Below, piece after piece: positions 3,735 through 21,284 of a stretch of DNA of 64,000 nt. A model generated the notes under the pieces. It saw only the letters and a list, made by a program, of their open reading frames with translations, did no database searches and was not told the DNA's origin. The stretch is from Candidatus Woesearchaeota archaeon. GTDB lineage: Archaea > Nanobdellota > Nanobdellia > SCGC-AAA011-G17 > JACPNG01. The position numbers were made by a program, and so were the translations under genes. Where the stretch lies: positions 24,502-88,501 of the forward strand of contig CAYVWZ010000002.1 in NCBI GenBank assembly GCA_964455655.1, read 5' to 3'. Position 1 is the stretch's first letter; every line of letters begins with the position of its first letter.

Positions 3735-4282
3735 GCGAGTCAGACATTCCATTCAAAGAAGGAGGAGAATGGTATTTTATTCTTTACAGACTAGGACTAG
3801 CAATAATTGTCGTTGCAATAGTGTTAGTGATGACCAGCAAGTATGAGGGAAGAGACATTGACGTAACACCATTAGAATCAGAACTCCTCCTTGATAGAGT
3901 GTATTACTCAGCAACGTGCTTTGCTGCTAACGACAACATACGAGGATATGCAGGAGAACTTGATATGGACAAATTCACTCAAGAACAACTCACTACATGC
4001 CTTCATGGACCCTTCTATATTAAAGTTGAATTACTCAACCAGAAACAAATACTCTATAATGATGAAGATCTGTATATACGCAACGAACCCTACTGCAAAT
4101 TCTCAACATTTACTTGCACAACAAGATTAGTTCCCGTACTTATTAGAAACGGAAAAATTACAACAGACACCCTCAACATCACTGTTATTATCCCAAAACA
4201 AGATAGAGACCAAACTATTGATACAAGCATTACACCCATAGAACCATCAATACCTTCAGACAAAACAACGAGGGCTGGATGA
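3731..4282 (+). CDS. hypothetical membrane-anchored protein
   Basis: ORF overlaps the previous stop (ATGA-type coupling). One TM helix (FILYRLGLAIIVVAIVLVM). Confidence 0.45.
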   Translation: MSESDIPFKEGGEWYFILYRLGLAIIVVAIVLVMTSKYEGRDIDVTPLESELLLDRVYYSATCFAANDNIRGYAGELDMDKFTQEQLTTCLHGPFYIKVELLNQKQILYNDEDLYIRNEPYCKFSTFTCTTRLVPVLIRNGKITTDTLNITVIIPKQDRDQTIDTSITPIEPSIPSDKTTRAG

Positions 4283-4824
4283 AAAAACTCAACAAGAAAG
4301 GATTCCTTGAAGAATTCATGACCGAATTCCTAGCAGCAGTTGCAATAGTAATTATTGTGATAGTATTCGGACTCTTATTCAATTTCGCAGGAGCATTCAA
4401 AGTATTACCAGAAGTTACTCTTACTCTTGCAGAAACTGATGCAAAAATCATTCATCTTGTCTATCTCAAAACTCCCTATGAAGACGGAACCGTAAGCGAT
4501 GAACTCATTCGTATAAGCATGGAAGAAGATGAGAGAAAACAAGAAGAGAGAATAGCAAAACTCCAAGAATTCAATACAGAATTTATTAAACCCTATCCAG
4601 GAATGGTCATTAACGGACGTATTCAAACAAAAGAAGACAACATCCTTCTCAAACCAGTCTATTCTGAATCACGAGAAAAAGAACCAACACTCTTACAAAA
4701 ATCCTCTGAAAGCACTATTACTCTTCCCACACCAAAAGGAGATATTAATGTGAGTATTGGATTAGTCAATATTTACGATATCCAAATCTATAAGCCCTCA
4801 TCAGGTGAAATCAATGAACATTAA
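4279..4824 (+). CDS. archaeal type IV pilin-like protein (class III signal peptide)
   Basis: N-terminus MKKLNKKG-FLEEFMTEFLAAVAIVIIVIVFGLLF. Overlaps the neighbouring genes. Confidence 0.5.
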   Translation: MKKLNKKGFLEEFMTEFLAAVAIVIIVIVFGLLFNFAGAFKVLPEVTLTLAETDAKIIHLVYLKTPYEDGTVSDELIRISMEEDERKQEERIAKLQEFNTEFIKPYPGMVINGRIQTKEDNILLKPVYSESREKEPTLLQKSSESTITLPTPKGDINVSIGLVNIYDIQIYKPSSGEINEH

Positions 4825-6250
4825 GCGAGACAAGAGAGGATTAGTATTTGGACCCTATGCTGCTGCAGCACTCCTCGGATTACTTACCTATGCACTCATT
4901 GCCTTTGTAGGAAATCCCCTTCCAACACCTCAAGAAATTGGAAGCATTCAAGCAGAACTTATCAAAAATATTGGCACAGCAGAAGCACAACATTATTATC
5001 AAGAAAAACTTGCAGAACAAAGCACAACAGAAACTCTCTACTCCTTAAGCAAGACAAGCGGACTCTCACAAGAACAAATTAGACAGTGCGATAGAGGAGA
5101 TGGCATTTATGTATACAATGAACAATGCAATCCCACAAAAGCAATCCAGGAAAACTTCTTAAAAAATTTCAAACTCATCCATGATGAAAAACTAAAAAAA
5201 CAATCCATTAGCATTACCTCTTATTCTTTAGAACATAATACGCTCATAGGAACATATCGAATTATTGGAATTACAGGAGCACAACAATCTTACAACATCC
5301 AAAATAAACTTACTACAGAAAAAACACCTGGAAAAATACTTACAGCACCACCAACATATCCCGAATGTTCCCCTGGAACCTCAAGAGATCAATGCTATAA
5401 CAAACTCATTTCAGAAATAGCACAACGTTATGGAATGGATCCTCTTATGATCAAATCAATCATCAAAGTAGAATCAGCATTTAATTCAACAGCAAAATCT
5501 TCTGCAGGAGCACTAGGATTAATGCAGCTCGTTCCTTCATCAGCAATAGCAGATCTTAAAGACACAAGATACTCTGCAGGAAAGTATTGCAATGCACGAG
5601 GACTGAAAGAAGAAATTATTAATGATCCTAACCTCCTTAATGGAGACAATCCCTCTATATTCACTCCAGCAGTTAATATTGAACTAGGAACTTGCTACTA
5701 CGCATTCCTCTATGATCATTTTAATGGAGATCATCAATTAGCACTTATTGCATATAATCAAGGAGTTGGTGCAACAGAGAGAGCTCAAGGAAATCCAACC
5801 AATGCAGAAACAACAGATTACATTAACAAAGTCCTTACCGTCTATCATGCTTCTGAAAATAAAGACTTAACATTTATTACACTCACAAACCCTACACTTC
5901 CTTCTAAAATAACTGGAAGAGCTGTTGAAGAAGTAAAAGAGCAAGCCCCCTCAAAAATTATAGGAAATATCTATGTTGATTATAGTTTCAATGTAAGCGT
6001 TCGCGGAACACTCGATGACTACAAAAATATTTACGAAACTACGCAAGAAAAAGGAAACTGCCTCCTCGGAGATAATCCTCAATCATGCTACCATAATGAA
6101 CACGGTTATACATGGAAAGTTACGATGAGGGAGGGATATCCATTAATTACTGTTATAACCTCTACAAGAGATCCATTACACCCATCGCGAGAACCTGTAA
6201 CCATAACATTCTATGCAGATCCTCAATGGTTAAAAAATCCTAATCCTTAA
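4805..6250 (+). CDS. lytic transglycosylase (SLT/GH23 lysozyme-like domain) protein, N-terminal membrane anchor
   Basis: SLT signature YGMDPLMIKSIIKVESAFNSTAKSSAGALGLMQLVP...ALIAYNQGVGA with the catalytic ES. Confidence 0.7.
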   Translation: MKSMNIKRDKRGLVFGPYAAAALLGLLTYALIAFVGNPLPTPQEIGSIQAELIKNIGTAEAQHYYQEKLAEQSTTETLYSLSKTSGLSQEQIRQCDRGDGIYVYNEQCNPTKAIQENFLKNFKLIHDEKLKKQSISITSYSLEHNTLIGTYRIIGITGAQQSYNIQNKLTTEKTPGKILTAPPTYPECSPGTSRDQCYNKLISEIAQRYGMDPLMIKSIIKVESAFNSTAKSSAGALGLMQLVPSSAIADLKDTRYSAGKYCNARGLKEEIINDPNLLNGDNPSIFTPAVNIELGTCYYAFLYDHFNGDHQLALIAYNQGVGATERAQGNPTNAETTDYINKVLTVYHASENKDLTFITLTNPTLPSKITGRAVEEVKEQAPSKIIGNIYVDYSFNVSVRGTLDDYKNIYETTQEKGNCLLGDNPQSCYHNEHGYTWKVTMREGYPLITVITSTRDPLHPSREPVTITFYADPQWLKNPNP

Positions 6251-6277
6251 AAAGAAGTTTCATACTGAGAATAAACA

Positions 6278-7696
6278 ATGCCTAAGAAAAAAAGAGGAAT
6301 ACGAGGAAAGAGAGGAGAACAGAACTTAGGAACACCTCAACGAGTAGAAATAGACTGGAAAAATCCTTTCACTTCAGCACCATCAGAACGAGAACCTATT
6401 GTTGTTCAAAATACTATTCACGCAACACTCAAAAAAGATAAGGGAATATTCGGAGACTTTGCAAAAAAACTCATACTTACAGCAATCATTGTAGCAGTGT
6501 TATTTTTCTTCTTGTTCATTTTTACCGATTGGGGTCCCTTACTCGTAACCAATGGAGGAATATATTTTCAAAAAGCAATTGCAATAGTCTCCACAACAGC
6601 TGGAGGAATTAGAACCACATTAACAAACCCTGGAGAAACATTCGGGTCATGGGATAATCCAGAAGCAACGAGACTAGGCTCAGAAGAGAGAGGAGTATTC
6701 ATAAGTTCATTTAAAGCGCAGAGAGATTATGAACAAGGACAACAAGCAGACCTTCAAGGACAAGTACTTATTAAAAATCTAAAAGATACTCGTCCAATGA
6801 GTCTTAAAGTTTCATGCTATACAAAATATACTCCCCCTGGAACAATAGAACCAGAAATTACTCCAGGACTTGTAACGATACCCTTATTTCAAAAATCAGA
6901 ACCTCTAGAATTACAAGAAATACTTGTTGATCCTGAAGCACTTACTATTCTCAAAAACGGAGGAGAATTCCAATTCGGTGTTCATTGCATTATACCAAAA
7001 GAAGCATCAGATAGTGTTGTATACACTGGAGATAATACTCTCATTACAAGAGAAGCAATATTACGTATAGACTATAGAGCACAAACACAGTCCCTACTTA
7101 AAGTTGTAACATCTCCATCTCCCTATAGCAAAGACCAACTCGATAATCTCGCACTCTCTTTACGAAATCAAGGAATTGTTTCGAGAGAGGGAAAACTCGG
7201 AGCACAAACATCAGGAGGTCCTTTAGATCTCCAGGTAGACCTTGGAATCGCACAACCACTTACACCAGGTTCATTCCCTACTGAAGGAATACAAACCATT
7301 CCACTAACTATCGGACTCACTGATAGTCAAGGATGGGAAGGACAACTTACAAGCATTTACAACATTGAAATCTTAGGATTACCAAATTTGCTGAGGATTG
7401 ATCAGGGATGTAGAGACTTTGAACGAGGAAGCGGATTGCATGGCGAGCCTGCACTAAAACAAGAAATTATCCAAGAAGTAAATGATTGCATTAAAGAATT
7501 ACAAGATGATTCAAAAGCACAATGCGCATATAATCCTAGAAGATTGCGAGAAGCATTCTCATGCCAACTAAAACTCGAAACTCTTGGAGAAACTCCAAAC
7601 GTTCAAGATATTGTTGTTGAAGCAGACTATGATTACAGTATTAGCCAAAAAGGCGGAATTAATTATCAAAAACCACGAGAGAGTAGTACTCCTTAA
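6278..7696 (+). CDS. hypothetical membrane-anchored secreted protein
   Basis: Basic N-terminus followed by a TM helix (LILTAIIVAVLFFFLFIF). No recognised domain. Confidence 0.45.
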   Translation: MPKKKRGIRGKRGEQNLGTPQRVEIDWKNPFTSAPSEREPIVVQNTIHATLKKDKGIFGDFAKKLILTAIIVAVLFFFLFIFTDWGPLLVTNGGIYFQKAIAIVSTTAGGIRTTLTNPGETFGSWDNPEATRLGSEERGVFISSFKAQRDYEQGQQADLQGQVLIKNLKDTRPMSLKVSCYTKYTPPGTIEPEITPGLVTIPLFQKSEPLELQEILVDPEALTILKNGGEFQFGVHCIIPKEASDSVVYTGDNTLITREAILRIDYRAQTQSLLKVVTSPSPYSKDQLDNLALSLRNQGIVSREGKLGAQTSGGPLDLQVDLGIAQPLTPGSFPTEGIQTIPLTIGLTDSQGWEGQLTSIYNIEILGLPNLLRIDQGCRDFERGSGLHGEPALKQEIIQEVNDCIKELQDDSKAQCAYNPRRLREAFSCQLKLETLGETPNVQDIVVEADYDYSISQKGGINYQKPRESSTP

Positions 7697-7740
7697 GATC
7701 ATAGAAATACATATAAAACATCGTCCAGGAAAATTCCATA

Positions 7741-8658
7741 ATGAAAAAGAGTGTTATTGTTATTCTTCTCGTAGCAATTCTTCTCACAGGATGTACCTTT
7801 GTTAATAATTTAACACCAACAACAAGACAAGCAGCAACAGCAGAAACACCACATAAAGGAATATCTGTACAATCAATAGGATCAGTAACAAACCAAGATA
7901 CAAATCCTGTCCCCTTAACAGAAAATTTTCCTTACACCTACGGAGCAGTTATTAGAAATTATGACCTTAATCCATTACTCGTAACCGTAAGATTAAGCGA
8001 TGGTACTGATGATGCTTATGGTGGATTAGAAGAATATGGAGAAAGCACCTTGTTTTCAGACATGATGATTGACACAGGGGAAGAACTCACTGTTGGTCCT
8101 ACAAAATTTAGTTATCGTCAAAGATCACAAAGCATCACCACATTTCCTGTACCCGTATTTCAAACCTTTGCAACTTATGACTACAGCTTAAAAACTGGTG
8201 ATGCAGTAAAAATACCCACTATACCAGAACATTGCACAAGTGGAAGAGAAAATCCAGAACGAGAAAACATCTGCGATGTTAGGATACAACCCACAGCAGG
8301 AAATAATAATGTAGCACCCATTAGAGTTGAAGATATTTCAGCAAACTTCATTCCTGAAGACGGAGCAGTATCAGCAACAGTAAGTCTGAGACTACAAAAT
8401 GTTGGCGGAGGGTACATCCCCGATTACACATTAAATCCTATAGCTGTAAATGTAGCTATTGATGGCTTTGCGCCATTCACTTGCATACCAGAGGAAATCT
8501 ACTTAAAAGAACTCTCTGCAGATGTACAATGTACATCTTATGCTACTAACCTTAAAGCAGGAAGAGCTGAACCAAAAGTACTTACAATTGCAGCAGGCTA
8601 TCGCTATGAAATAGCTACAGGACAATTAACAGGAGAAATAATCAACACAGAGGAGTAA
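7741..8658 (+). CDS. hypothetical lipoprotein
   Basis: Signal peptide with lipobox-like LLTGC (MKKSVIVILLVAILLTGC). Confidence 0.5.
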   Translation: MKKSVIVILLVAILLTGCTFVNNLTPTTRQAATAETPHKGISVQSIGSVTNQDTNPVPLTENFPYTYGAVIRNYDLNPLLVTVRLSDGTDDAYGGLEEYGESTLFSDMMIDTGEELTVGPTKFSYRQRSQSITTFPVPVFQTFATYDYSLKTGDAVKIPTIPEHCTSGRENPERENICDVRIQPTAGNNNVAPIRVEDISANFIPEDGAVSATVSLRLQNVGGGYIPDYTLNPIAVNVAIDGFAPFTCIPEEIYLKELSADVQCTSYATNLKAGRAEPKVLTIAAGYRYEIATGQLTGEIINTEE

Positions 8659-8664
8659 AATAAC

Positions 8665-9642
8665 ATGCAAGACTACAACGCAATCATAGCAAAAATAATG
8701 GAAACAACAGGAAAATCACGAGAAGAAATAGAAGCAAAAGTACAACAAAAAGTATCACAATTATCAGATCTTGTAAGCAAAGAAGGAGCAGCGCACATTG
8801 TTGCAAATGAATTCGGTGTTAAAGTCTACACCCCTGAAGTAAAACAACGATATCGCATCAATGAATTAAAACCAGGACTACGAAGCGTTGAAGTCGTCAT
8901 GAAAATCGTACAAAAATACGAAGTACGAAGTTATTCACGAGATAATAGATCAGGAAAAGTAGCATCAATACTCGCTGGCGACGAAACAGGAATGATACGA
9001 CTCGCAGTATGGGACGAAACCCTCATTAACAAAATACAACAATCAAAAGAAAATGATATTATTCTTATCGAAAATGCTTACGTCAAAGAAAATAATGGTT
9101 TCAAAGAATTACACATAGGAAATAAAGGAAGCATAGAAGTTAATCCTAAAGGAGAAAATGTTGGAACTGTAAGCGCAGCAAAGAAAGAACAAGCATCTTA
9201 CGAACAAAAAAAACTCAACTCCCTACGCCCAGGAGATAGTGCAAGAATAACAGGAACTATCGTACAATTATACGAACCACGATTCTACCAAGCATGCCCT
9301 GATTGCAGTAAGAAAGTCGTCGATGGAAAATGCCCCTCACACGGAGCAATACAGCACGTCTTTGTACCTATCTTAAACTTTGTCTTAGATGATGGAAGCG
9401 ACAATTTACGCGTAGTATGCTTTAGAGATACTGTAGAACAAGTCCTAGGCGTAGGAAAAGAACAAGTAGAAAATATTAGAAAAAATCCAGCACTATTCCA
9501 AGAATATTTACGAACCATACCAGGAAAACAATATACCATCACAGGAAAAGCAACAAAGAATGAAATGTACGACAGAGTAGAAGTCACAGCAAATACTGTA
9601 GAAGCACTAAACGTTCACGCAGCATTACAAGAATTACTCTAA
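8665..9642 (+). CDS. replication protein A (RPA)-like ssDNA-binding protein with OB fold and C4 zinc ribbon
   Basis: N-terminal helical region (EEIEAKVQQ...LVSKEGAAHIVANEFGV), an OB-fold-like segment (ILAGDETGMIRLAVWDE) and the zinc ribbon CPDCSKKVVDGKCPSHG. GGAGG-like RBS upstream. Confidence 0.6.
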   Translation: MQDYNAIIAKIMETTGKSREEIEAKVQQKVSQLSDLVSKEGAAHIVANEFGVKVYTPEVKQRYRINELKPGLRSVEVVMKIVQKYEVRSYSRDNRSGKVASILAGDETGMIRLAVWDETLINKIQQSKENDIILIENAYVKENNGFKELHIGNKGSIEVNPKGENVGTVSAAKKEQASYEQKKLNSLRPGDSARITGTIVQLYEPRFYQACPDCSKKVVDGKCPSHGAIQHVFVPILNFVLDDGSDNLRVVCFRDTVEQVLGVGKEQVENIRKNPALFQEYLRTIPGKQYTITGKATKNEMYDRVEVTANTVEALNVHAALQELL

Positions 9643-10049
9643 ACATACCTTAAGAGTATTGCTACTATTCCTGAAGTTAAGCCACAAATAACTACACCCC
9701 AAACCGTGTCAACAATAACTATTTTTGAAGACCAATTATTCAACACTGCATAATTTGTTAATTCATACACACCATAGACTACTAAACCAAGAATAGCGCC
9801 ACGCAGCGCTGCTAAAGATACTCCGCTTGAAGAACTAAATACAAACACTACTAATCCTAATGCTAGAAGAATATATACTCCTATTGTTGCAGGAATATTT
9901 GCTTTCAATGAACCATTTTCTATTCTTCCAAGAGTTCCAAGCTCTTTCTTGTAGAACTTATTCATAATCAAACCAACCCACACTAAATCAAGAATAATAA
10001 TTATGATAAAACAAAACGCAAAAATTTTTGCTCCTTCTAATAACTCCAT
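9639..10049 (-). CDS. hypothetical integral membrane protein
   Basis: 136 aa with 3-4 predicted TM helices. Confidence 0.4.
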   Translation of the reverse strand: MELLEGAKIFAFCFIIIIILDLVWVGLIMNKFYKKELGTLGRIENGSLKANIPATIGVYILLALGLVVFVFSSSSGVSLAALRGAILGLVVYGVYELTNYAVLNNWSSKIVIVDTVWGVVICGLTSGIVAILLRYV

Positions 10050-10125
10050 ACATCTCTCTGATCTCTTTTATTTTATATAGTTTTGTGTAGGAACACTTTT
10101 AAAACAATGATCCCTAGAGATTACC

Positions 10126-10371
10126 ATGAAAAAAGAACTATGGTTTAAACGAAAACTCTATGGATGGGGATGGTATCCTTCAACATGGCAGGGATGGCTT
10201 TCTACACTAGCATTTATTCTCATTGCTGTAGCTATTAGTTTTATACCAAGAAAACCAACCTTACAAGATTATATTCTTACTTTTGTTCTTCCACTCATTG
10301 TTCTTATTGGAATTTACCTTTTCATTTGTTATAAGAAAGGCGAATCACCAAGATGGCAATGGGGTGCTTAA
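10126..10371 (+). CDS. small hypothetical membrane protein
   Basis: 81 aa with two hydrophobic helices. Confidence 0.35.
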   Translation: MKKELWFKRKLYGWGWYPSTWQGWLSTLAFILIAVAISFIPRKPTLQDYILTFVLPLIVLIGIYLFICYKKGESPRWQWGA

Positions 10372-10374
10372 TCA

Positions 10375-10830
10375 TTGATGTACTACACCCACCTCTTAGT
10401 GGGCATTTTTGTTAGCGTTCTCGCAATAAAACTCTTTGAACTAAGTCATCCTCTATGGTTTGTTATAGCAGTATTATTCGGGAGCATCTTTGTTGATATC
10501 GACGAAACACAGAGCTTCATTGGACGAAGAACAAAACCCTTATCATGGATCATCAAAGCATTGTTTGGACATAGAGGATTATTCCACAGCGTATTCATGG
10601 CAGCTGCAATAGCCTATGGATGGTATTATTTTATAGGAATAGAAGTAGCTCTAGGATTTTTAGCAGGATATGTAGGGCATTTACTCTCAGATGGGATTAC
10701 ACAGGGAGGAGTAAGAATATTTTATCCTTTAAGCACGTACGAAATAAGAGGATTTGTGCGTGTTGGAGGAATATTTGAAGCATTTCTCTTTATTGGCATT
10801 GCAATCGTTACTCTCATCTTGATTATTTAG
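10375..10830 (+). CDS. membrane-bound metal-dependent hydrolase family protein (YdjM/DUF457-like)
   Basis: His/Asp-containing TM segments (HLLVGIF...DIDE...FGHRGLFHS...HLLSDG). Confidence 0.45.
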   Translation: MMYYTHLLVGIFVSVLAIKLFELSHPLWFVIAVLFGSIFVDIDETQSFIGRRTKPLSWIIKALFGHRGLFHSVFMAAAIAYGWYYFIGIEVALGFLAGYVGHLLSDGITQGGVRIFYPLSTYEIRGFVRVGGIFEAFLFIGIAIVTLILII

Positions 10831-10870
10831 TACACGAATGTTTATATGAAAGTTATGCCCCCTATAATTT

Positions 10871-11173
10871 ATGAGAGGCTCTCGACTCGCCATACTTTCC
10901 TTTGGCTTGGCTAGTTTAGTAAACTGCACCGTTCATACAACTACTCAAGATTATCTGTATCAATATAATATGAAACTTCCTCCTACTACTTGTACAAGAT
11001 TAAGCCACAAAATATATACTCCTCTTGAGCCATCACCAGAACACGCGAGCAATCCTCAAAGAGAAACTGATACACAACCAAAGACTCGTGTTGATGAGTA
11101 TACTCTTGAATTTTGCGTGCCTGAACTAACAGATTATGAAACTTATGATTCTTCGAGAAAGCCAGAAATCTAG
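10871..11173 (+). CDS. hypothetical protein (weak)
   Basis: 100-aa ORF in a slightly GC-elevated stretch. No motif recognised. Confidence 0.15.
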   Translation: MRGSRLAILSFGLASLVNCTVHTTTQDYLYQYNMKLPPTTCTRLSHKIYTPLEPSPEHASNPQRETDTQPKTRVDEYTLEFCVPELTDYETYDSSRKPEI

Positions 11174-11225
11174 AATTATATTTTTTAGTAGATAGATTAA
11201 TGTCACATTGCCAAGTGCACACAGT

Positions 11226-11244
11226 GCTTATAAATCGTATAAGC
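11226..11244 (+). promoter_or_regulatory. perfect hairpin/palindrome GCTTATA-AATCG-TATAAGC containing a TATA-like TTATAAA
   Basis: Inverted repeat seen directly in the intergenic region upstream of the radA unit. Confidence 0.3.
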
Positions 11245-11281
11245 TGTATAGACACTAGTTAGCCAAAAACTAACACCTCAT

Positions 11282-11301
11282 TGAAACAAAAACCGAAAGG
11301 A
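11282..11301 (+). repeat. 20-nt direct repeat tgaaacaaaaaccgaaagga (copy 1), followed by a purine-rich RBS and a 14-codon mini-ORF
   Basis: Identical 20-mer seen again at 11371-11390. Confidence 0.6.
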
Positions 11302-11370
11302 AGAGGTAGGAATTCCAATGATAGTTGGAAAACCTTCAAGAATTCTTGCCATTCTTTCTTAAGGAACATA

Positions 11371-11390
11371 TGAAACAAAAACCGAAAGGA
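11371..11390 (+). repeat. 20-nt direct repeat tgaaacaaaaaccgaaagga (copy 2), followed by an RBS and the ATG at 11408
   Basis: Identical to 11282-11301. Confidence 0.6.
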
Positions 11391-11407
11391 CAAAGGAGCT
11401 GAATACC

Positions 11408-11680
11408 ATGCAAGGACAAAAACCTGTAAAAAAATATCGCTCAGGAAGTTTTGAATTAGCTTTCTGGGAAAATGAAAGAGCAGTCAATGACAGCTTAGTA
11501 ACATTCACTACCCTAAGCTTAAGCAAGAGCTTTAAGAAAAAGGGAGACGACACATGGAGATCAGAAGTCATGCACATTCGAAGAATGGACTTACCAAAAA
11601 TTTTAATCCTCCTCCAAAAAGGAATGGAAGACTTGTATCTCACCGACAACGACAGAGACGATATTGAAACGGAGGACTAA
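11408..11680 (+). CDS. small conserved protein immediately upstream of radA, possibly a PC4-like ssDNA-binding fold
   Basis: 90 aa with an AGGAG RBS. Its stop lies 3 nt before the radA ATG. The segment FELAFWENERAV...VTFTTLSLSKSFKKKGDDTWRSEVMHIRRMDLPKI loosely resembles the PC4/Sub1 C-terminal domain. Confidence 0.4.
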   Translation: MQGQKPVKKYRSGSFELAFWENERAVNDSLVTFTTLSLSKSFKKKGDDTWRSEVMHIRRMDLPKILILLQKGMEDLYLTDNDRDDIETED

Positions 11681-11683
11681 GCA

Positions 11684-12649
11684 ATGGCAAAAGAAAAAAT
11701 AGCTCTCGAAAGCGATGTTAGCGTTCAAGACTTACCAGGAGTAGGCGCAGCAACTGCAGAAAAATTAGCAGAAGCAGGATACGATAACCTCATGAGTATT
11801 GCCGTAGCAAGCCCAGGACAAATCGTAGAAGCATCAGGTGTTGGAGAAGCAGTAGCAAGAAAAATCATCAAAGCAGCACGTGATAAATTAGACATGGGAT
11901 TTGAGTCAGGAACAGCACTTCTTGAAAGAAGATTGAACATTGTTAAAATAAGCACTGGCCACAAAGATTTTGATAACTTACTTGGCGGAGGATTCGAATC
12001 AGGAAGTATTAGCGAATGCTTCGGAGAATTTGGATCAAGCAAGACACAAGTAGCACATGTCTTAGCAGTACAAGTACAAAAACCAAGAGATGGACTACCG
12101 CCCGGAAAAGCAATCTACATTGATAGCGAAGGAGCATTCAGACCAGAGAGAATAGTTCAACTCGCAAAAGGAGCAGGACTAGATCCTGAAGAAGCTCTAA
12201 AAAATATTCATGTTGCAAGAGCATTCAACAGCGACCATCAAATGCTCTTAGCAGAGAAAGCAGAAGACCTCTTGAAGAAAGATAAGACTATTAGATTGTT
12301 AGTTGTCGATAGTTTAACAAGCCACTTCAGAGCAGACTTTGTTGGACGAGGACAATTAGCAGATAGACAACAAAAACTCAACAAACACATGCACGTACTC
12401 ATGAGACTAGCAAATCAGTATAATGTATGTGTATATGTGACAAACCAAGTTATGGCAAAACCTGATATGTTCTTCGGAGATCCGACAGCAGCTATTGGTG
12501 GAAACATTGTTGGGCATAACTCTTCAACAAGAGTCTACCTCCGAAAAGGAAAGAAAGGAAGTAGAGTTGCAAGACTTATTGATAGTCCTCACCTCCAAGA
12601 TGGTGAGTGCGCATTTATGGTAACAGAAGAGGGATTAAAAGAAGTTTAA
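11684..12649 (+). CDS. radA: DNA repair and recombination protein RadA (archaeal Rad51/RecA homolog)
   Basis: N-terminal HhH region LPGVGAATAEKLAEAGY. Walker A-like GEFGSSKTQ, Walker B LLVVDS. About 320 aa. GGAGG RBS. Confidence 0.9.
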   Translation: MAKEKIALESDVSVQDLPGVGAATAEKLAEAGYDNLMSIAVASPGQIVEASGVGEAVARKIIKAARDKLDMGFESGTALLERRLNIVKISTGHKDFDNLLGGGFESGSISECFGEFGSSKTQVAHVLAVQVQKPRDGLPPGKAIYIDSEGAFRPERIVQLAKGAGLDPEEALKNIHVARAFNSDHQMLLAEKAEDLLKKDKTIRLLVVDSLTSHFRADFVGRGQLADRQQKLNKHMHVLMRLANQYNVCVYVTNQVMAKPDMFFGDPTAAIGGNIVGHNSSTRVYLRKGKKGSRVARLIDSPHLQDGECAFMVTEEGLKEV

Positions 12650-12663
12650 TCTCTTCTATTTTT

Positions 12664-13134
12664 TTATTTTATAATATACTCAATATGTTTTTCTAATTCT
12701 TTCGGTATTTCAAAACTATTTACACTATCCATTCGAGCAATTACAAAGGGAGCCCATGCTCTTTCTATAATCTTTGCAAACCAATGGTCAGGAATAGTAA
12801 TACCCGCCTTATTCTCTTGCAAGATCTCTTTTACAATCACATCCCTTTTTATTTCAAGAAGGATTACATCTTGGCTTGGAAGTTTTTTTAATGTTTTCCG
12901 AGATTCATCATTGACACGAAAGTTTGCATCAATCCACTCACGATTCGGAGCAATAATTGAGAGAGGAATGTTTGGCAGTACTTTACAAATAGTATGAACT
13001 GATTCTGCGTTACGTGCATCACACCCAAGAACATAGAACTCATTCATGCTATATGCAAAAATTTTCCCATCAATAATTTCTTCAACATAAAATTCACTCT
13101 TATCGAGAATTTCCTTTTTTGAAATAGGTTTCAT
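12664..13134 (-). CDS. YrdC/Sua5-domain protein (threonylcarbamoyl-AMP synthase family), short form
   Basis: IFAYSMNEFYVLGCDARNAESVHTICKV...LSIIAP matches the YrdC VIAYPTEAVFGVGCD...LILIAA region. Shorter than typical YrdC. Confidence 0.45.
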   Translation of the reverse strand: MKPISKKEILDKSEFYVEEIIDGKIFAYSMNEFYVLGCDARNAESVHTICKVLPNIPLSIIAPNREWIDANFRVNDESRKTLKKLPSQDVILLEIKRDVIVKEILQENKAGITIPDHWFAKIIERAWAPFVIARMDSVNSFEIPKELEKHIEYIIK

Positions 13135-13165
13135 TGTTACAACTTTTTATGTCGGGTTTAAGAAA

Positions 13166-13489
13166 TTAATGTAATGTTCTTGCTTCTGCAGGAGGCAATT
13201 TTGGGAATTGTGGAATTGCTGGCACTTTGCTATTACCCTCATCTGAATCATCTTCTGCTCCTTCATCACATGAAGGGATCTTATACAGTGGAGGGGGAAG
13301 TGGCGTTTCAGGAGGTCTTCTATTTCTAGGAATATCTGGATGTATAATCGCTTCTAAATTAGGGCTTTCTCCTAGAGGGTCCCATGGCCATGGTCTAGAA
13401 GGCTGCGCAGGCTCATTATTTGATATGATTGTGATATCGTATATAGGAGGATATCCTCTCTCATAGCCAAATGGGTTGTCAGGAATCAT
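13166..13489 (-). CDS. hypothetical proline-rich protein (uncertain)
   Basis: 107-aa Pro-rich ORF in a GC-elevated segment. A competing Ser/Gly-rich ORF sits on the opposite strand, so the coding strand is uncertain. Confidence 0.2.
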   Translation of the reverse strand: MIPDNPFGYERGYPPIYDITIISNNEPAQPSRPWPWDPLGESPNLEAIIHPDIPRNRRPPETPLPPPLYKIPSCDEGAEDDSDEGNSKVPAIPQFPKLPPAEARTLH

Positions 13490-13587
13490 GGTGCAGTTCT
13501 CAGCGGGAAGAGGAACTTCTATAAAAGAGTTATTGTCACTTTATGTAAGTAGTAACAAATGGAAAGGTTTAAAAGGCTACAAACTAC

Positions 13588-14367
13588 ATGCCAGACAAAG
13601 AGAGGAACACTATGTCAAGTAATGACCCTATAGGAATTGAACATCTTTTAGATGATAGCACAGATCCATTCATGACCGCTCATCAAACTGTCGATCGCGC
13701 TTTTGACAAACTTGCTACATTAATACCAAGAAATCTTAGAACTCAAGCATTCTCTATTTTAGCTCAAGCACGCGATGCACACGAAACACAAAGAAAAACA
13801 TATGGAGAACGACGTGTTGAAGCAATAGTTGATCCACTCACTAGAGTCTTTAACAAAAAAGGTTATCATGAAGTAGGCGATCTATGGTTAAGCGCTGCTC
13901 AAGATCTCTATAGAGAATCAGGACAACAACTTACTGGTGCTTTAAGTGTTCTAGATCTTAATTACTTTAAAAATATTAATGATAGATATGGTCACGCAGT
14001 AGGGGACGAATTACTTTCAAACGTAGGACAAGCACTTAATGAAGTTACACGATCTACAGATACACCTCTTCGAGTAAAAACACGAGAAGCAGCAGCACGC
14101 ACTGGAGGGGACGAGTTCGCAATCCTTCTTTTAGCAATACCTGTCCAAGGGCATGAAACAGTGCTCAGCAACGTACAAGACCGTATCAATAGAAGAACTG
14201 CACAATTATTTAGTCAGAGTCATCCTCAAATTTATGCTGATAACACCACTCACTTAAACGCTATTGCAAGTATGGGCAGCGCAGTCTACGGCCCTGATGG
14301 AGAAGACCTTTTTGATCTCTTTAAAGTAGCTGACAGAAATCTCTATAAAGTTAAAGCAAAGCGCTAA
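13588..14367 (+). CDS. GGDEF domain protein (putative diguanylate cyclase), no obvious sensor domain
   Basis: DPLTRVFN...LSVLDLNYFKNINDRYGHAVGDELL...RTGGDEFAILL...ADRNLYKVKA carries the GGDEF hallmarks with an intact GGDEF motif. No RxxD I-site. Confidence 0.75.
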   Translation: MPDKERNTMSSNDPIGIEHLLDDSTDPFMTAHQTVDRAFDKLATLIPRNLRTQAFSILAQARDAHETQRKTYGERRVEAIVDPLTRVFNKKGYHEVGDLWLSAAQDLYRESGQQLTGALSVLDLNYFKNINDRYGHAVGDELLSNVGQALNEVTRSTDTPLRVKTREAAARTGGDEFAILLLAIPVQGHETVLSNVQDRINRRTAQLFSQSHPQIYADNTTHLNAIASMGSAVYGPDGEDLFDLFKVADRNLYKVKAKR

Positions 14368-14403
14368 CATAACTCTTATAAAATCTCAACTCATAATAAT
14401 TTT

Positions 14404-15126
14404 GTGAACACACTGAAAGCGTTCTGGCAAGAACTCAAAGAAGACTTACGAAAGAATACTCTCGTAAAAACATTATTCTTTCTTGGGATTATCCTTATCG
14501 GACTAGCATTCTTAAACAGCTTTTTAACATTTATAACAACAGCACTAAACCTGCCCTTACGAATATTACTTCTTCTCTTCTCATTCTTCTTGGTTGTAAG
14601 TCTCATCAGAAAAAAAGGAAGAACAGTGCAGGATTATCTTATTACCATTTCAATTATTTTTATTTCACTTATTTATCCAACCATCGCACAGAACAATGAA
14701 CATCTCATAGGAAATGCAATACTCATTAGTATTACCATATTTTTAACACTAGCAATAATTATCCTATGGAACTTAGCAAAGAAAAGTACAAAAGTAAACA
14801 GAAAGAGAATATCATTTATTTCAATTATAATGTTAGTATTCTTTATTATAACACTCTACAGTTGGATATACACACTATTAATCGTAACAGGATCTGAAGG
14901 AGGACTGCGATTCGGAGGATGCGACGATTCTCTCACCATACCACCTCAGCTCAACGCAAATGAACATACTTTCTATTACAGCGCGATAACCTACACTACT
15001 GTAGGCTATGGAGACATTTGCCCACAAGGAAAGAGATTCAGAACTATTGCAGCACTAGAAGCAATAACAGGAATATTATCAATACCCACATTCTTCTATG
15101 TTATAACACGTGGAGATGAAGAATAA
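14404..15126 (+). CDS. potassium channel family protein (TVGYGD selectivity filter)
   Basis: Multiple TM helices and the pore signature TTVGYGDICP. GTG start in the track. Confidence 0.65.
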   Translation: MNTLKAFWQELKEDLRKNTLVKTLFFLGIILIGLAFLNSFLTFITTALNLPLRILLLLFSFFLVVSLIRKKGRTVQDYLITISIIFISLIYPTIAQNNEHLIGNAILISITIFLTLAIIILWNLAKKSTKVNRKRISFISIIMLVFFIITLYSWIYTLLIVTGSEGGLRFGGCDDSLTIPPQLNANEHTFYYSAITYTTVGYGDICPQGKRFRTIAALEAITGILSIPTFFYVITRGDEE

Positions 15127-15129
15127 AAA

Positions 15130-15202
15130 TGCCCCCGCTGGGATTCGAACCCAGGTCACAAGCTCCGCAAGCTCGTATTCTATCCAACTATACTACAGGG
15201 GC
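15130..15202 (-). tRNA. tRNA-Arg (anticodon GCG)
   Basis: Reverse complement GCCCCTG...GGGTTCGAATCCC...CGGGGGC-A. Acceptor stem is 7 bp and the T-arm is perfect. Anticodon loop UUGCGGA. The D-stem folds only with one mismatch. Confidence 0.75.
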
Positions 15203-15269
15203 GTCAAACTGCTTCATTTAGAGGCTTTATTAACATTATTACCCCCGCAAAACCTTTATAAAGAGCTCT

Positions 15270-15458
15270 TTGACAGGCATCCCTATGAAAACATCATACA
15301 AATCAACTGCATCCAAAATCGAAATCATCAACGATTCTGGAAGCACACGATTCAAGTGCCCAAGCTGTAAAGAAGGAGATATTGTTAGAACACTCCACGA
15401 AAGAAAGCTTGCAACAAAGTACACTTGCCCAAAATGCGGCTTTGAAGGACCAAACTAA
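15270..15458 (+). CDS. C4 zinc-ribbon protein (conserved neighbour of aEF-1beta)
   Basis: CPSC...CPKC pairs. Immediately upstream of ef1b, as in many archaea. Confidence 0.5.
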   Translation: MTGIPMKTSYKSTASKIEIINDSGSTRFKCPSCKEGDIVRTLHERKLATKYTCPKCGFEGPN

Positions 15459-15734
15459 ATGGCAGATGTCATTATCGTATTACAAGTTCGCCTTGAAAGC
15501 CCAGAAGTAGATCCTAACTCCGTAATCAAAAAAGCAAGCGAAATTCTTACCACTGGCGGAGCAAAAGTCCACGAAAGTAAAGTAGAACCACTCGCATTCG
15601 GCCTCAAACAAGTATTAATCACCTTCTCACGAGATGAAAACAAAGGATCAGTTGATGACCTTGAAGAAGAAATATCATCCCTAGACGAAGTCATGAGCAC
15701 AGAAGTTATTGGAATTAGCAGATCACTTAACTAA
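15459..15734 (+). CDS. ef1b: translation elongation factor aEF-1 beta
   Basis: About 90 aa: MADVIIVLQVRLESPEVD...LAFGLKQVLITF...SVDDLEEEISSLDEV matches the archaeal EF-1beta pattern. Confidence 0.75.
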   Translation: MADVIIVLQVRLESPEVDPNSVIKKASEILTTGGAKVHESKVEPLAFGLKQVLITFSRDENKGSVDDLEEEISSLDEVMSTEVIGISRSLN

Positions 15735-18285: not shown

Positions 18286-19023
18286 ATGCAATCAAAGAGG
18301 AAGGGGCAAACAACCATATTTGTTACAGTAGGAATACTCATTCTTATTATCATTAGCATCGGAGTCTACTACAGAACAACACTCAAAGACGCAATCCTAC
18401 CACAAACAAATCCCACTACCTTTAGTGATGAAGAAGAAAACGTTAGAAACTATGTAGAAGAATGCTTCCAAGACGGATTACAAAATGCCGTATTCTTAAC
18501 ACAGAAACAATCAGGACATTTGTACATTTCAGGAGAGACCTTTAATCTACACGGCGCAGAAATACCCTACGCATACACCCAAAATGGAAGCCAAGTATTA
18601 AACTCTGAAAGTCTAGAATCACAGTTCCAACAATACCTCATACAACAACTCTTCCAATGCACCAAACCATTAAACGTTACCTTCGAACAACCTGCAACAA
18701 CCGTTACTATCGATACTGAAGGAGTAAACGCGCGACTCATTTACCCCTTTACCTTAAGCCTTGCACAATCAAACATACGAAATGATTACCCCTACACCTA
18801 CGCTATCAAAGTACCCCTCTATAGTTTTCTAAAAATAACTCAATCTGTAGCGGATGCACTCGTCAGTCAACCACAAGAATTTCCTCTAGGATTATTAGTT
18901 AGCCAAAATATCTTCAAAACAGAGACTGTCATACTTGACAACGCAACACTTATACAATTAACACCACTCAACGCAACAAATGAAACTTACATTATCGCTG
19001 TAGAAAATGGTGATACTCAATGA
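18286..19023 (+). CDS. archaeal type IV pilin-like protein (class III signal peptide RKGQ-TTIFV)
   Basis: [27 protein letters not shown]. Shares a conserved E-x-C-x-x region with the 45114 and 50411 proteins. Its stop overlaps the next start. Confidence 0.6.
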
Positions 19024-21284
19024 AAAAAACAATACTCATCGCATTACTCATTATCATCTTAAGCTCTAGCACTCTCGCTGTCGCAAACTTAGAAAACTTT
19101 GCAGCACTGACCTTTAATCAATACGGAGCAATGGGAATAGAAAAAGCAACAGGAAGTAGCGAATCAGCACAACTCATCGCAAGCTTTGTTGGAGGGGACC
19201 CAACAACAGCAGCATTAAACGCATTTCTCGCACAAGCAGGAAAGAAAGATCCCGATATAGGACAATTACAACAACTTGCAACATGCACTGTTAACCCCCT
19301 AGGATGTGCACAAAGCCAAGTATTAGAACAAACAATGAAATCATTAACACCAGAACAAGCAAAAGCAGTAAACCTCCTAAGTCAAGTCCAAGGAAATGCA
19401 CAATTAGTTGAAGCACTCTTTGAAAAAGGAGAAGAAGGAACCGCAAGTGTTACCGAAAAAGGAGATCTAATCCTTAAAGATGATAAAGGAAATATTCGTT
19501 TACGCCTACCACCAGATACAAAAATAGAACAGGATAAAGAAAATCCTAACAAATATACTTTAAATTCCATGCAAGGAAAAGAAGCGCACTTCTTAGATCA
19601 AACAATAAGTGGTGCTGAAAGCTTAACACTCACTAGAAATCCAGAATTAGGAATAGAAACCATCACCATAACAAAAGGAACCAGTATAACTTATTGTACT
19701 GAGACAGGAACAAATTGTTTAAGTAATCTTGGAGAAGGAACAATCATAACCTCTCACATTATCGATAGAGCTGATGGAAAAAAAGCTACACTTCTCGCTA
19801 GACTACAAACAAAACTTGAGAAAGATACTCCTCACATCACCATCGACGGATATACCTATGATGACCTCAAGAAAGGAGATGTCATTAACTTTGCACGCTC
19901 TGACAATGGACCTAACGAACTAAGAATGATCAGAGCAAATGACGCGTATTCTTTAATGCTCGATGACCAAAAAACAGTCTATGGAAGCTTCGCAATCACA
20001 CGAGAATCAGGAAGAGATCAATACATGACATTATTCACCGGAAGCAGACTTGATACCAACGCAGGAATACCCAATAATGATGTAAGCATTCAAACAAAAG
20101 AACCAATCTACATCAATCTCAATGCAAACAATCTCAATAACTGCGGAGAACGCTGTGCAATAAGCATTATTGGAAATAAATTAACATCAGAACAACTCTC
20201 ACCCTTAACCACTATAATAAAAAAAATTAATGGAGCAGAAGCATACAAACTGACCCAAGCATCAGGATTCACCGTATTTTTAGATAGCAATACTATAAAC
20301 TTCAAAGAGAACGCAGACGCAAGAATAGAAACACAGGGAATAGAATATCACTTCCATAACGGAATGCTCAATCCTGTAACTATAGGAGAAACAGCAATCA
20401 CAAAAAATCTCAAAAACCATCCGACCATCACCTATACTGATATGAACGGACATCAAATGTCAGCAGCACCAACTCAAAGAGGAAATGATATACTCATAGG
20501 ATTTGCTCTAGAAAATGGAGAACTACAAAACACCTTCGCAGTAGAAGAACCCCTACCTGTAGAAGAAAAAGCTATTGATGAACTCCTTGAAAGAGACCAA
20601 GTAACTGCAGAAGAAATGCCTTGGAGCCTCCCACTCGTTACAGAATATTCTTGTAAAGATGGAACAAGAGTTGTATCTAAATCTGTCCACCAACATGATT
20701 CTGTATTCACTGAAGTTGCACCACGTTATGGATACGACCCATCAATACCAAAAGTCGTAATGGATTTAGAATCAAGCGGAAGACCCACAGCATTATCCCC
20801 TCAAGGAGCATATGGACTTATGCAGATCCAAGACCCTACCATGAGAGGACTATTACGAAAACCAACAGGAGACATGTGTAACTCCCTAGGAAAAGTTCAA
20901 GACACAAAACCAGGAATTTACTGCGCATGTAAATTTGATCAATACCCACCAGTAGGAGACTCAAAAAAACTTAGAGAACAAGCAAAACCAGCAGTAGATA
21001 GAGCACTCTGCTATTTACGATACAATGAAGCTGTTTTCATAGAAAAAGGAATTCTAAAAGAAACCGATTCCCAAGAAAAGAAATTAGCATTCTCTCTTGC
21101 AGCATACAATGCAGGACCTGATAAAGTTGAAAAATATGGAGGAGTACCACCATTCAAAGAAACACAGAAATTTGTAGAATGTATAACAAACTATGCAAGT
21201 TCTGTTCAATTAGCACGCACAGACCTCTTAGCTGGACAACAAATAGCTAGTGCTAGACCACCACCAACATCATCAGGCGGTTAG
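19020..21284 (+). CDS. large secreted protein with C-terminal lytic transglycosylase (SLT) domain
   Basis: Signal peptide [25 protein letters not shown] motifs [34 protein letters not shown] and [12 protein letters not shown]. Confidence 0.7.

Follow-up and report, generated by a model that had tools for sequence, protein, structure and literature searches.

A GGDEF-domain gene conserved beside a potassium channel gene in a small clade of Woesearchaeales-type archaea probably encodes a minimal diguanylate cyclase

The window (the whole 64,000-nt stretch of DNA that was analysed) carries a GGDEF gene on its plus strand, between a divergent small ORF and a K+ channel gene. The genes of this block and its flanks are as follows.

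11684–12649, plus strand: RadA, the archaeal recombinase (Pfam Rad51, E 1.5e-86), the left anchor of the block and a taxonomic marker
12664–13134, minus strand: short Sua5/YrdC-like gene (Pfam PF01300, E 7.2e-10), part of the conserved block
13166–13489, minus strand: divergent small ORF of 107 aa, proline-rich and acidic, upstream of the GGDEF gene and with native codon usage
13588–14367, plus strand: GGDEF (diguanylate cyclase-type) gene, the longest ORF being 259 aa
14404–15126, plus strand: K+ channel gene, 240 aa (Pfam Ion_trans_2, E 1.4e-10)
15130–15202, minus strand: tRNA-Arg(GCG), directly after the channel gene

The surroundings are archaeal. Genes around the GGDEF gene encode RadA, aEF-1beta, RPA, a member of the eRF1 family, aIF2alpha and GINS51, and further archaeal genes in the window specify a zinc finger protein of the HVO_2753 type, S3Ae, L44e and RecJ/GAN. 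The best named relatives of the RadA protein belong to Woesearchaeota, Nanoarchaeota and Nanoarchaeia (70–77% identity).

A preliminary description, made from the sequence alone, had proposed that an archaeal genome encodes a GGDEF protein which stands alone and keeps its active-site motif intact, and this was borne out for what is a DPANN archaeon. The ORF of 259 aa is real (ORF list), and the motifs quoted for it were all found in the translation: DPLTRVFN (residues 82–89), DLNYFKNINDRYGHAVGDELL (123–143), RTGGDEFAILL (171–181) and ADRNLYKVKA (248–257). A profile search recovered the GGDEF domain, with Pfam PF00990 matching residues 79–258 (E 8.7e-28; 97.5 bits, the cut-off being 23.8), and the protein scored 100.8 bits with NCBIfam TIGR00254 (threshold 37.4). 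GGDEF was the sole domain detected by Pfam; the profile search found no further domain in the N-terminal 78 residues, and there is no recognisable sensor domain, as had also been proposed. The AlphaFold2 (AF2) model (pLDDT 83.6) has helices at residues 27–45 and 48–80, and when it was compared with the PDB by Foldseek, all 50 of the matches listed were GGDEF-domain proteins, nearly all of them diguanylate cyclases (best E 5e-12). The parts of the protein are given below.

13666–13827, plus strand: N-terminal two-helix hairpin or stalk (residues 27–45 and 48–80; AF2 secondary structure), running into the GGDEF domain
13822–14361, plus strand: GGDEF catalytic domain (residues 79–258; profile, sequence and structure matches)
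14050–14061, plus strand: R155-S-T-D158, an RxxD in the column of the canonical inhibitory site (I-site), by alignment
14062–14088, plus strand: clade-specific, basic insertion of nine residues (TPLRVKTRE) between the RxxD and the strand bearing the GGDEF motif
14104–14118, plus strand: GGDEF active-site (A-site) motif, G173–F177, by sequence, with its G, G, E and F columns invariant in the alignment described below

The predicted architecture is about 25 disordered residues, then a two-helix stalk (residues 27–80) and then a complete GGDEF domain. The synthesis of c-di-GMP needs two GGDEF domains facing each other, each with one GTP-Mg2+. The N-terminal helices (27–80) are the presumed dimerisation element and would supply a constitutive dimer, like the stalks of DgcB, SiaD and WspR.

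The true start of the gene is probably the ATG at 13612 (M9), giving a protein of 251 aa. Three short elements were noted around the two reading frames.

13568–13576, plus strand: TTTAAAAGG, a putative archaeal TATA box of the GGDEF gene, 44 nt upstream of ATG 13612
13600–13605, plus strand: GAGAGG, a presumed Shine-Dalgarno-like element 6 nt upstream of ATG 13612
14365–14384, plus strand: TAACATAACTCTTATAAAAT, a conserved element of 20 nt overlapping the GGDEF stop codon

Corresponding signals occur at the orthologous locus L084 (see below), where the identical 9-mer TTTAAAAGG lies 49 nt upstream of the ATG of the GGDEF orthologue, and AGAGG lies 8 nt upstream of it. The channel gene is preceded by a conserved promoter-like element of its own, since TAACATAACTCTTATAAAAT includes a TATA-like box 20 nt upstream of the GTG start of that gene. 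In L084 and in a second orthologous locus, L092, TAACATAAYYCTTATAAAAT is found at the matching place, 20–22 nt before a GTG-AAC start; these loci are otherwise too diverged from the window for blastn, despite sharing this sequence. TTTAAAAGG and TAACATAACTCTTATAAAAT may act as promoter elements, to judge from their positions and conservation, and the 5' end of the GGDEF transcript is predicted near 13598.

The residues of the domain were examined column by column in an alignment of 58 GGDEF domains. The positions for metal, guanine and catalysis are occupied by the consensus residues: D123, K128, N131, D140, R171, the motif G173-G-D-E-F177 and K256. The Arg before the motif (R171) belongs, with G, G, E and F, to columns invariant in 58/58 sequences, and the consensus is also matched at D123 (58/58), N131 (58/58) and D140 (57/58). 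D123, N131 and D140 would be the counterparts, by motif correspondence, of D327 (metal), N335 and D344 (guanine) of PleD. The C-terminal phosphate-binding Lys and Arg of PleD are K442 and R446. K256 is present here (58/58 in the alignment), and the C-terminal helix stops three residues past it; the protein ends at R259, which places an Arg at +3 rather than at the usual +4. The turn that usually reads NRR is NKK. Hypr-GGDEF proteins, which are cGAMP synthases, reportedly carry Ser in place of the base-specifying Asp; here the residue at the equivalent of PleD D344 is Asp (D140), and an Asp at the guanine-specifying position favours c-di-GMP over cGAMP as the product.

The preliminary description had called the I-site absent, but at the level of the motif the RxxD (R155–D158) is present in the canonical column, with a different spacing. 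Both R155 and D158 are invariant in a four-member family alignment, and the column reads R..D in 55 of the 58 aligned domains. The canonical arrangement, with RxxD exactly 5 residues before GG[D/E]EF, is absent: 14 residues separate the D of the RxxD from GG, against 5 in 57 of the 58 domains, because of the insertion TPLRVKTRE. The orthologues also have extra residues in this loop (nine in L084 and five in L092; family alignment), and the 57 comparison sequences offer no precedent for the nine-residue insertion, which adjoins the active-site hairpin. The loop at residues 157–164 has low pLDDT in the AF2 model. The RxxD feedback site is retained, displaced nine residues from the active-site hairpin by the basic insertion, and so product inhibition may be altered; an insertion in this position could also impair or change the activity itself.

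The best match by sequence was the diguanylate cyclase tDGC of Thermotoga maritima (TM1788; 4URS/4URG/4URQ), with E 9e-16 and about 31% identity, and tDGC was also the best structural match of the AF2 model (TM-score on the target 0.79–0.82). The two proteins have in common the GGDEF motif, the RxxD and all of the nucleotide and metal positions, but tDGC has the canonical spacing of 5 between RxxD and GG and the protein described here has 14. Unlike the latter, tDGC is a bacterial protein with N-terminal membrane and sensor parts. Caulobacter DgcB (6TTR), Pseudomonas SiaD (7E6G) and the WspR stalk (3I5C) were among the top Foldseek matches; in these an N-terminal helix or coiled coil likewise leads straight into the GGDEF domain, with a total length of about 250 aa, although their stalks show no sequence similarity to the stalk found here. 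The NCBIfam model for SiaD matches residues 78–258 far under its equivalog cut-off, and with scores so far below such cut-offs the protein is no orthologue of DgcB, SiaD or WspR. SiaD is switched by a partner protein, SiaC, of which no homologue was seen here. The response-regulator cyclases of the PleD and WspR type have the same catalytic core and likewise an RxxD for product inhibition, but the archaeal protein lacks their receiver and any other recognisable input domain.

Orthologues of the gene were found at two loci from other samples, L084 (45% protein identity) and L092 (37%), the alignment beginning at residue 22 and taking in the N-terminal helices, so that the stalk region is conserved as well. 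Both had been missed by a word-indexed homologue search and were recovered through RadA synteny and an exhaustive HMMER search, in which they were the only two proteins at E ≤ 1e-30. The RadA of L084 is 88% identical to that of the window. The order in both loci is the same as in the window (Sua5-like gene, small ORF, GGDEF gene, Ion_trans_2 gene). The Sua5/YrdC-like orthologue is 45% identical in L084 and is a split copy in L092, and the place of the 107-aa ORF is taken in L084 by a proline-rich, acidic ORF of 89 aa showing no similarity to it by BLAST. Channel orthologues lie directly downstream of the GGDEF gene (63% identity in L084 and 53% in L092), and this adjacency holds in all three lineages. 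The same gene order, with orthologues that are 45% and 37% identical, suggests that the gene was inherited vertically.

Contamination has been named in print as a possible source of the GGDEF genes seen on archaeal contigs (PMC5847659, PMC10086821), and a chimeric assembly had been raised as a concern for this locus also. Three other assemblies from different sequencing runs are colinear with the window across both junctions at 99.2–99.8% identity; each encodes an identical GGDEF protein, and the gene shows zero nucleotide differences between the strains. Of the sample accessions looked for in the literature, one, JGI 3300039186, occurs in a paper on Ace Lake, Antarctica. Misassembly is very unlikely because these assemblies reproduce both junctions and the L084 and L092 orthologues stand in the same place. 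As the gene also has native codon usage, and archaeal-type TATA and Shine-Dalgarno elements in common with its orthologue, an assembly or binning artefact that joined a bacterial fragment to an archaeal contig is scarcely credible. Only a little more probable is a recent acquisition from bacteria, in which a GC-rich island would have entered the interval between RadA and aEF-1beta not long ago; the preliminary description had favoured acquisition from bacteria on grounds of composition. GGDEF domains are overwhelmingly bacterial, and the interval from RadA to aEF-1beta does vary among relatives, three of which (L085–L087) have Bro-N and reverse-transcriptase genes there. The GC elevation itself proved to be mild. 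The segment at 13.1–14.4 kb has a GC fraction of 0.394, where the window averages 0.370; 14% of segments of the same size equal or exceed it. The gene has 0.400 (z = 1.18), with 10 of 71 ORFs higher. Within the gene, the excess lies in the first codon position (GC1 0.575); GC3, at 0.232, falls short of the mean (0.265), and synonymous codon usage conforms to that of the window (log-likelihood z = 0.05). The nearest homologues had been expected to be bacterial, but the closest are the archaeal orthologues, syntenic in two diverged lineages. The bacterial GGDEF matches listed in a scan of genome contigs, dominated by the generic YGHAVGDE pattern, had 26–41% identity, the best of them coming from many phyla at 30–41%. 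Among the matches listed from 1.84 billion cluster representatives and 185,579 species genomes, the closest bacterial homologues stood at about 36–40%, and none lay above about 41%. No integrase and no tRNA-derived or other flanking repeats marking an integrated element were found. A neighbour-joining tree of GGDEF domains placed the three orthologues together as a monophyletic group with weak support (bootstrap 42/100); their tie to the pair P0269/P0394 was unsupported (2/100), and the tree pointed to no donor lineage. Recent transfer is not supported: native codons, archaeal-type expression signals and conservation together with the channel gene in three diverged lineages all speak against a recent import. 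The ultimate origin was probably an old bacterial transfer into the ancestor of the small clade, as the phyletic rarity of the gene suggests. Sequence and context together indicate that the gene truly belongs to the chromosome of a DPANN archaeon of the Woesearchaeales type, and its product is probably a minimal diguanylate cyclase.

What such a protein does must be considered together with its neighbour. The channel has about six hydrophobic segments by hydropathy and a TTVGYGD filter, and it ends about 6 residues past its last membrane helix, with no RCK or CNB domain (Pfam). The simplest guess would have the cyclase, or the nucleotide it makes, act on this adjacent channel, which has no ligand domain of its own. 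The pairing is known from three related lineages only; distant channel homologues found in a metagenome scan with a channel profile (up to about 35% identity over long matches) had no GGDEF ORF within 5 kb, as searched with a local GGDEF HMM. The c-di-GMP partner domains EAL, HD-GYP and PilZ, which the preliminary description had suggested looking for, were absent from the 64-kb window, as was MshEN (Pfam on about 70 window ORFs, and motif regular expressions), and so were c-di-GMP riboswitches, Rfam yielding three tRNAs only.

The same facts can be read in other ways. An inactive cyclase, serving as a GTP- or c-di-GMP-sensing regulatory subunit or as a scaffold, for example as the soluble gating partner of the K+ channel, would accord with a pairing kept in three lineages, with a channel so short beyond its last membrane helix and devoid of RCK and CNB domains, with the unique basic insertion beside the I-site and A-site, and with a 64-kb window containing no phosphodiesterase or receptor. 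This is unlikely, if well worth considering, for the checked catalytic residues are kept in three lineages at only 37–45% overall identity, a pattern expected under selection for catalysis. Degenerate GGDEF domains of the receptor type normally lose GGDEF or metal residues, and these are retained here. A slim chance is given to the synthesis of another cyclic dinucleotide, by a Hypr-GGDEF-like cGAMP synthase or a c-di-AMP synthase. The documented dinucleotide of archaea is c-di-AMP rather than c-di-GMP (PMC10249747), and its link to potassium homeostasis would suit a conserved K+ channel neighbour, but D140 and N131 are retained as in the guanine-specific cyclases, the Asp being common to 57 of 58 aligned canonical domains. 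Slimmer again is the prospect of an anti-virus signalling pair of cyclase and membrane effector, in the style of CBASS, Pycsar or Panoptes. The cyclase gene does adjoin a membrane-protein gene within a variable interval; against this, no PADLOC model matched the cyclase, the channel or the small ORFs at any of the three loci, housekeeping genes surround the pair, and the membrane protein is a canonical K+-selective channel (TVGYGD filter) rather than a pore-forming effector equipped to sense nucleotides. The most likely reading of the protein remains a minimal diguanylate cyclase that dimerises and is native to one small clade of Woesearchaeales. That this clade uses c-di-GMP, with the co-conserved six-helix K+ channel as its direct target and the basic insertion mediating the coupling, is a bolder proposal and a doubtful one. 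If true, it would give Archaea their first case of functional c-di-GMP signalling, and would imply a new type of receptor or a cyclase–channel complex, the channel having no known ligand-binding domain.

A c-di-GMP-gated K+ channel was not found in the literature searched. The nearest parallel is the control of potassium by c-di-AMP (DacZ in Haloferax; channels gated through RCK_C), where a cyclic dinucleotide synthase is likewise connected with K+ homeostasis in prokaryotes, archaea included (PMC10249747); DacZ, however, has the DAC fold rather than GGDEF, and the channel described here has neither RCK_C nor another known dinucleotide-binding domain. The preliminary statement that c-di-GMP signalling is essentially unknown in archaea agrees with the literature, according to which no archaeon has ever been found to contain c-di-GMP, and archaeal GGDEF genes await confirmation (PMC10249747, PMC5847659, PMC10086821). 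Earlier archaeal examples comprise Methanocella arvoryzae CAJ37382, a REC-GGDEF protein of Ca. Micrarchaeum and BLAST matches in Asgard and DPANN MAGs, those in DPANN being mentioned by Braun et al. 2021 (PMC8646023) and Galperin et al. 2018 (PMC5847659). These came without authentication, their authors warning of contamination, and are set apart here by their descriptions. The Ca. Micrarchaeum domain is described as inactivated, whereas the present protein has an intact motif and a context borne out by synteny and independent assemblies. Since GGDEF matches in DPANN MAGs are already in print (PMC8646023), the surprise is only moderate, and the gene is a well-authenticated addition to them. 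With native codons, independent assemblies, synteny in three lineages and retained catalytic residues, the locus confirms an archaeal GGDEF gene for one DPANN clade. Its product is short, soluble and easily synthesised, which allows a direct test of whether any archaeon makes c-di-GMP, and the K+ channel gene kept beside it in each lineage supplies a specific hypothesis for the output of the cyclase.

The open reading frame proposed in the preliminary description (13588–14367, + strand, 259 aa) was confirmed, and all of the quoted motifs were found in its product. Residues 79–258 match the GGDEF family PF00990 (E = 8.7e-28; 97.5 bits against a gathering score of 23.8), NCBIfam model TIGR00254 scores 100.8 bits (cut-off 37.4), and the N-terminal 78 residues match no other family, consistent with the reported lack of a sensor domain. 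In an AlphaFold2 model (pLDDT 83.6, pTM 0.76), residues 1–22 are disordered and helices 27–45 and 48–80 form a hairpin, followed by the canonical GGDEF fold, in which loop 157–164 is of low confidence. Foldseek matches in the PDB were diguanylate cyclases throughout, the best being T. maritima tDGC (4URS, 4URG; E = 5e-12, TM-score on target 0.79–0.82), with the stalk-bearing DgcB, SiaD and WspR also ranking high; a PDB sequence search agreed.

Catalytic columns were read from an alignment of 58 sequences. The consensus residue is present at D82, N89, D123, K128, N131, D132, H136 and D140, and at R171, G173, G174, D175, E176, F177, D249, Y253 and K256. The protein deviates in having NKK, not NRR, after the DxLT turn, and its chain stops three residues past K256. 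Orthologues occur at the loci of two diverged archaeal relatives, L084 and L092, the latter with GGDEY, one residue different. D140 is the predicted guanine-specifying aspartate. The Hypr subclass, which makes cGAMP, has serine at this position, and c-di-GMP is therefore the predicted product. On balance, this is probably a diguanylate cyclase that is active and belongs natively to a small woesearchaeal clade.

The inhibitory I-site was previously thought to be missing, but R155-S-T-D158 aligns with its canonical column (R..D in 55 of the 58 sequences), and this RxxD does not vary within the four-member family alignment. An insertion (TPLRVKTRE) extends the distance from Asp to GG to 14 residues; all 57 other sequences have 5. 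The insertion has 9 residues in L084 (INIRTKLRE) and 5 in L092, with a hydrophobic-R-x-K core common to all three, and is, judging by the alignment, a shared derived character of the clade.

A Pfam scan of about 70 ORFs of the window placed the gene between two archaeal information-processing genes:

11684–12649, RadA
15459–15734, aEF-1beta

Other genes of this kind are those for an HVO_2753-type zinc finger and RPA, and the window also encodes an eRF1-family protein, aIF2alpha, GINS51, PAC2, SRP54/FtsY, TruD and ribosomal proteins S3Ae, S15/S13N and L44e. The closest named RadA relatives (70–77% identity) are annotated as Candidatus Woesearchaeota, Nanoarchaeota or Nanoarchaeia; the host belongs to the DPANN radiation.

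Three further assemblies from separate sequencing runs (DRR685535, DRR404984 and DRR685533) encode an identical GGDEF protein. Their contigs align colinearly with the window (99.2%, 99.5% and 99.8% identity) and cover 3587–15141, 12806–14737 and 13384–14402, so that both junctions of the supposed GC-rich island are crossed. The gene order is also kept in the two relatives. In L084 (ERR14369873; RadA 88% identical) it is RadA, Sua5/YrdC-like (−), small ORF (−), GGDEF (243 aa) and Ion_trans_2 channel; in L092 (ERZ27258486), a third lineage, it is Sua5-like, small ORF, GGDEF (243 aa) and channel, with aEF-1beta further along. Identities to the window proteins in L084 and L092 are 45% and 37% for GGDEF and 63% and 53% for the channel; for the Sua5-like protein the L084 value is 45%, its L092 counterpart being split into two ORFs, and aEF-1beta of L092 is 58% identical. 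The suspicion of a chimeric assembly is thereby answered, misassembly or contamination being very unlikely, and it is nearly certain that this is a real gene in a real archaeal context.

Upstream of GGDEF, the small ORFs of the window (13166–13489, −) and L084 (11553–11822, −) occupy the same position and are both proline-rich with acidic tails, like composition and an RGY motif; BLAST between the two found no similarity. Among the strain-level assemblies L001–L003, the stretch holding the small ORF and GGDEF gene (13166–14367) has no nucleotide differences, against 15 in the 723 bp of the adjoining channel gene and 14 in RPA; the SNPs are clustered in a mosaic pattern. LAGLIDADG homing-endonuclease-like ORFs (1–561 and 7250–8359) lie on both sides of the L092 block. 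Another contig from the L092 sample, L093, carries RadA and stops just past it, as would fit a mobile element or intein that broke the assembly at that point.

Horizontal acquisition had been proposed from an elevated GC content. The 13.1–14.4 kb segment has a GC of 0.394, a value reached or exceeded by 14% of segments of the same size. The 71 ORFs average 0.368 (sd 0.027); the gene itself stands at 0.400 (z = 1.18) and is exceeded by ten of them, including RadA (0.408). Its excess sits in first codon positions (GC1 0.575, the window maximum) and reflects amino-acid composition; GC3 (0.232) is below the mean of 0.265, and, judged by the synonymous usage of the window, the gene's per-codon log-likelihood is average (z = 0.05). 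Searched exhaustively with HMMER, 1.84 billion cluster representatives yielded just two proteins at E ≤ 1e-30, the archaeal orthologues of L084 (P0245) and L092 (P0246). In 185,579 species genomes, the best matches among those listed were from bacteria of many phyla, at 26–41% identity. Around the gene there is no flanking repeat or integrase indicative of an inserted element, and the gene is absent from more distant relatives (RadA 76–77% identical). Typical GC3 and codon usage, the lack of a close bacterial homologue and the syntenic archaeal orthologues speak against the GC-based proposal and indicate a gene restricted to a small clade and located in a variable interval, but old and ameliorated within that clade; a recent transfer or artefact is unlikely. 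As the GGDEF family is overwhelmingly bacterial, a putative bacterial origin in the distant past is the most plausible source. In three of the more distant relatives (L085–L087, 7400–14500; RadA 77% identical), the RadA–aEF-1beta interval holds Bro-N and reverse-transcriptase (RVT_1) genes, which replace the Sua5-like/GGDEF/channel block of window 12650–15460.

Candidate expression signals of the GGDEF and channel genes are as follows:

13568–13576, putative TATA-type box TTTAAAAGG, ahead of the second in-frame ATG (13612)
13600–13605, GAGAGG element, ahead of the same ATG
14365–14384, 20-nt element TAACATAAYYCTTATAAAAT at the GGDEF stop codon (L084, 12694–12713; L092, about 2509–2528)

The L084 ATG has an identical box 49 nt before it and AGAGG 8 nt before it, and the orthologue alignment starts at residue 22 of the GGDEF protein. 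From these elements and the alignment start, we infer that translation begins at 13612, giving 251 aa. The 20-nt element is kept in all three lineages, the DNA elsewhere being too diverged for blastn, and lies 20–22 nt upstream of the channel's GTG-AAC start, which lengthens the called L092 channel ORF by 20 codons alignable with the other two channels. It resembles an archaeal promoter from which a leaderless channel mRNA would be transcribed, and may combine promoter and regulator-binding site. Adjacency and co-conservation of the two genes thus need not mean that they are co-transcribed.

The channel (240 aa) shows roughly six hydrophobic segments and a TTVGYGD selectivity filter, and its chain ends about 6 residues beyond the last helix, leaving no RCK, CNB or other ligand-binding domain. 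The hypothesis that the GGDEF protein is functionally coupled to this channel draws on an adjacency kept in three related lineages only, with flanks otherwise rearranged, and such coupling seems rather unlikely. No GGDEF gene occurs within 5 kb of distant channel homologues in JGI metagenomes, and no report of a c-di-GMP-gated K+ channel was found in the literature searched. The suggested search for EAL, HD-GYP or PilZ partners gave none among the ORFs of the 64-kb window by Pfam and motif, nor was MshEN found there. A DHH-family protein (59999–61357) matches archaeal RecJ and GAN nuclease models below their curated cut-offs, with no sign of a dinucleotide phosphodiesterase. An Rfam scan of the window gave three tRNAs and nothing else. 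Searched with PADLOC models, the cyclase, channel and small ORFs of all three loci gave no defence match. In L084, a partial P-type cation-transport ATPase (13433–14641, −) follows the K+ channel, a second ion-transport gene adjoining the block in that lineage.

Two further homologues (P0269 and P0394; 263 aa, about 35% identity, full-length coverage), which may belong to a wider family, have canonical I-site spacing. The P0269 contig (28% GC) has an adjoining HemK2/MTQ2-type methyltransferase gene matching TIGR00537 ('hemK_rel_arch'), which suggests another archaeon; its sample identifier appears in a paper on Ace Lake, Antarctica. Kinship of the two to the trio is without support in the domain tree (bootstrap 2/100 for all five, 42/100 for the trio alone). 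Galperin et al. (2018) listed one GGDEF domain from a complete archaeal genome, that of Methanocella arvoryzae, as well as a REC-GGDEF of Ca. Micrarchaeum that is inactivated, with a warning about contamination (PMC5847659); Braun et al. (2021) mentioned >300 BLAST hits, many from Asgard and DPANN MAGs (PMC8646023), and for Römling (2022) such proteins on archaeal contigs call for confirmation (PMC10086821). The present gene accordingly adds to earlier sightings, as a well-authenticated example with predicted catalytic competence, a clade-specific structural variation and a conserved genomic partner. That c-di-GMP signalling is essentially unknown in archaea holds, a 2023 review recording detection of c-di-GMP in no archaeon (PMC10249747).

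Bacterial-type murein-hydrolase genes (one Peptidase_M23, two SLT lytic-transglycosylase) lie at 2682–6250 and 19020–21284, and the first cluster is kept in L084. Such genes are common in DPANN genomes and may hint at interaction with bacteria. Two giant ORFs (45847–49794 and 50869–56076; 1315 and 1735 aa) with MopE-type Cu-binding repeats, probably surface proteins, account for the raised GC (0.40–0.44) at 46–55 kb. The listed ORF 15110–15370 is almost certainly spurious: it overlaps an opposite-strand tRNA-Arg(GCG) (15130–15202), and its codon usage is aberrant (GC3 0.52). A 148-aa ORF (31164–31610) matches the DDE_Tnp_1 transposase in its C-terminal part only, suggesting an IS remnant. A perfect 20-nt direct repeat, TGAAACAAAAACCGAAAGGA, occurs at 11282–11301 and 11371–11390 (89 nt apart), upstream of and partly inside the region before a small gene (11408–11680) that itself precedes RadA.
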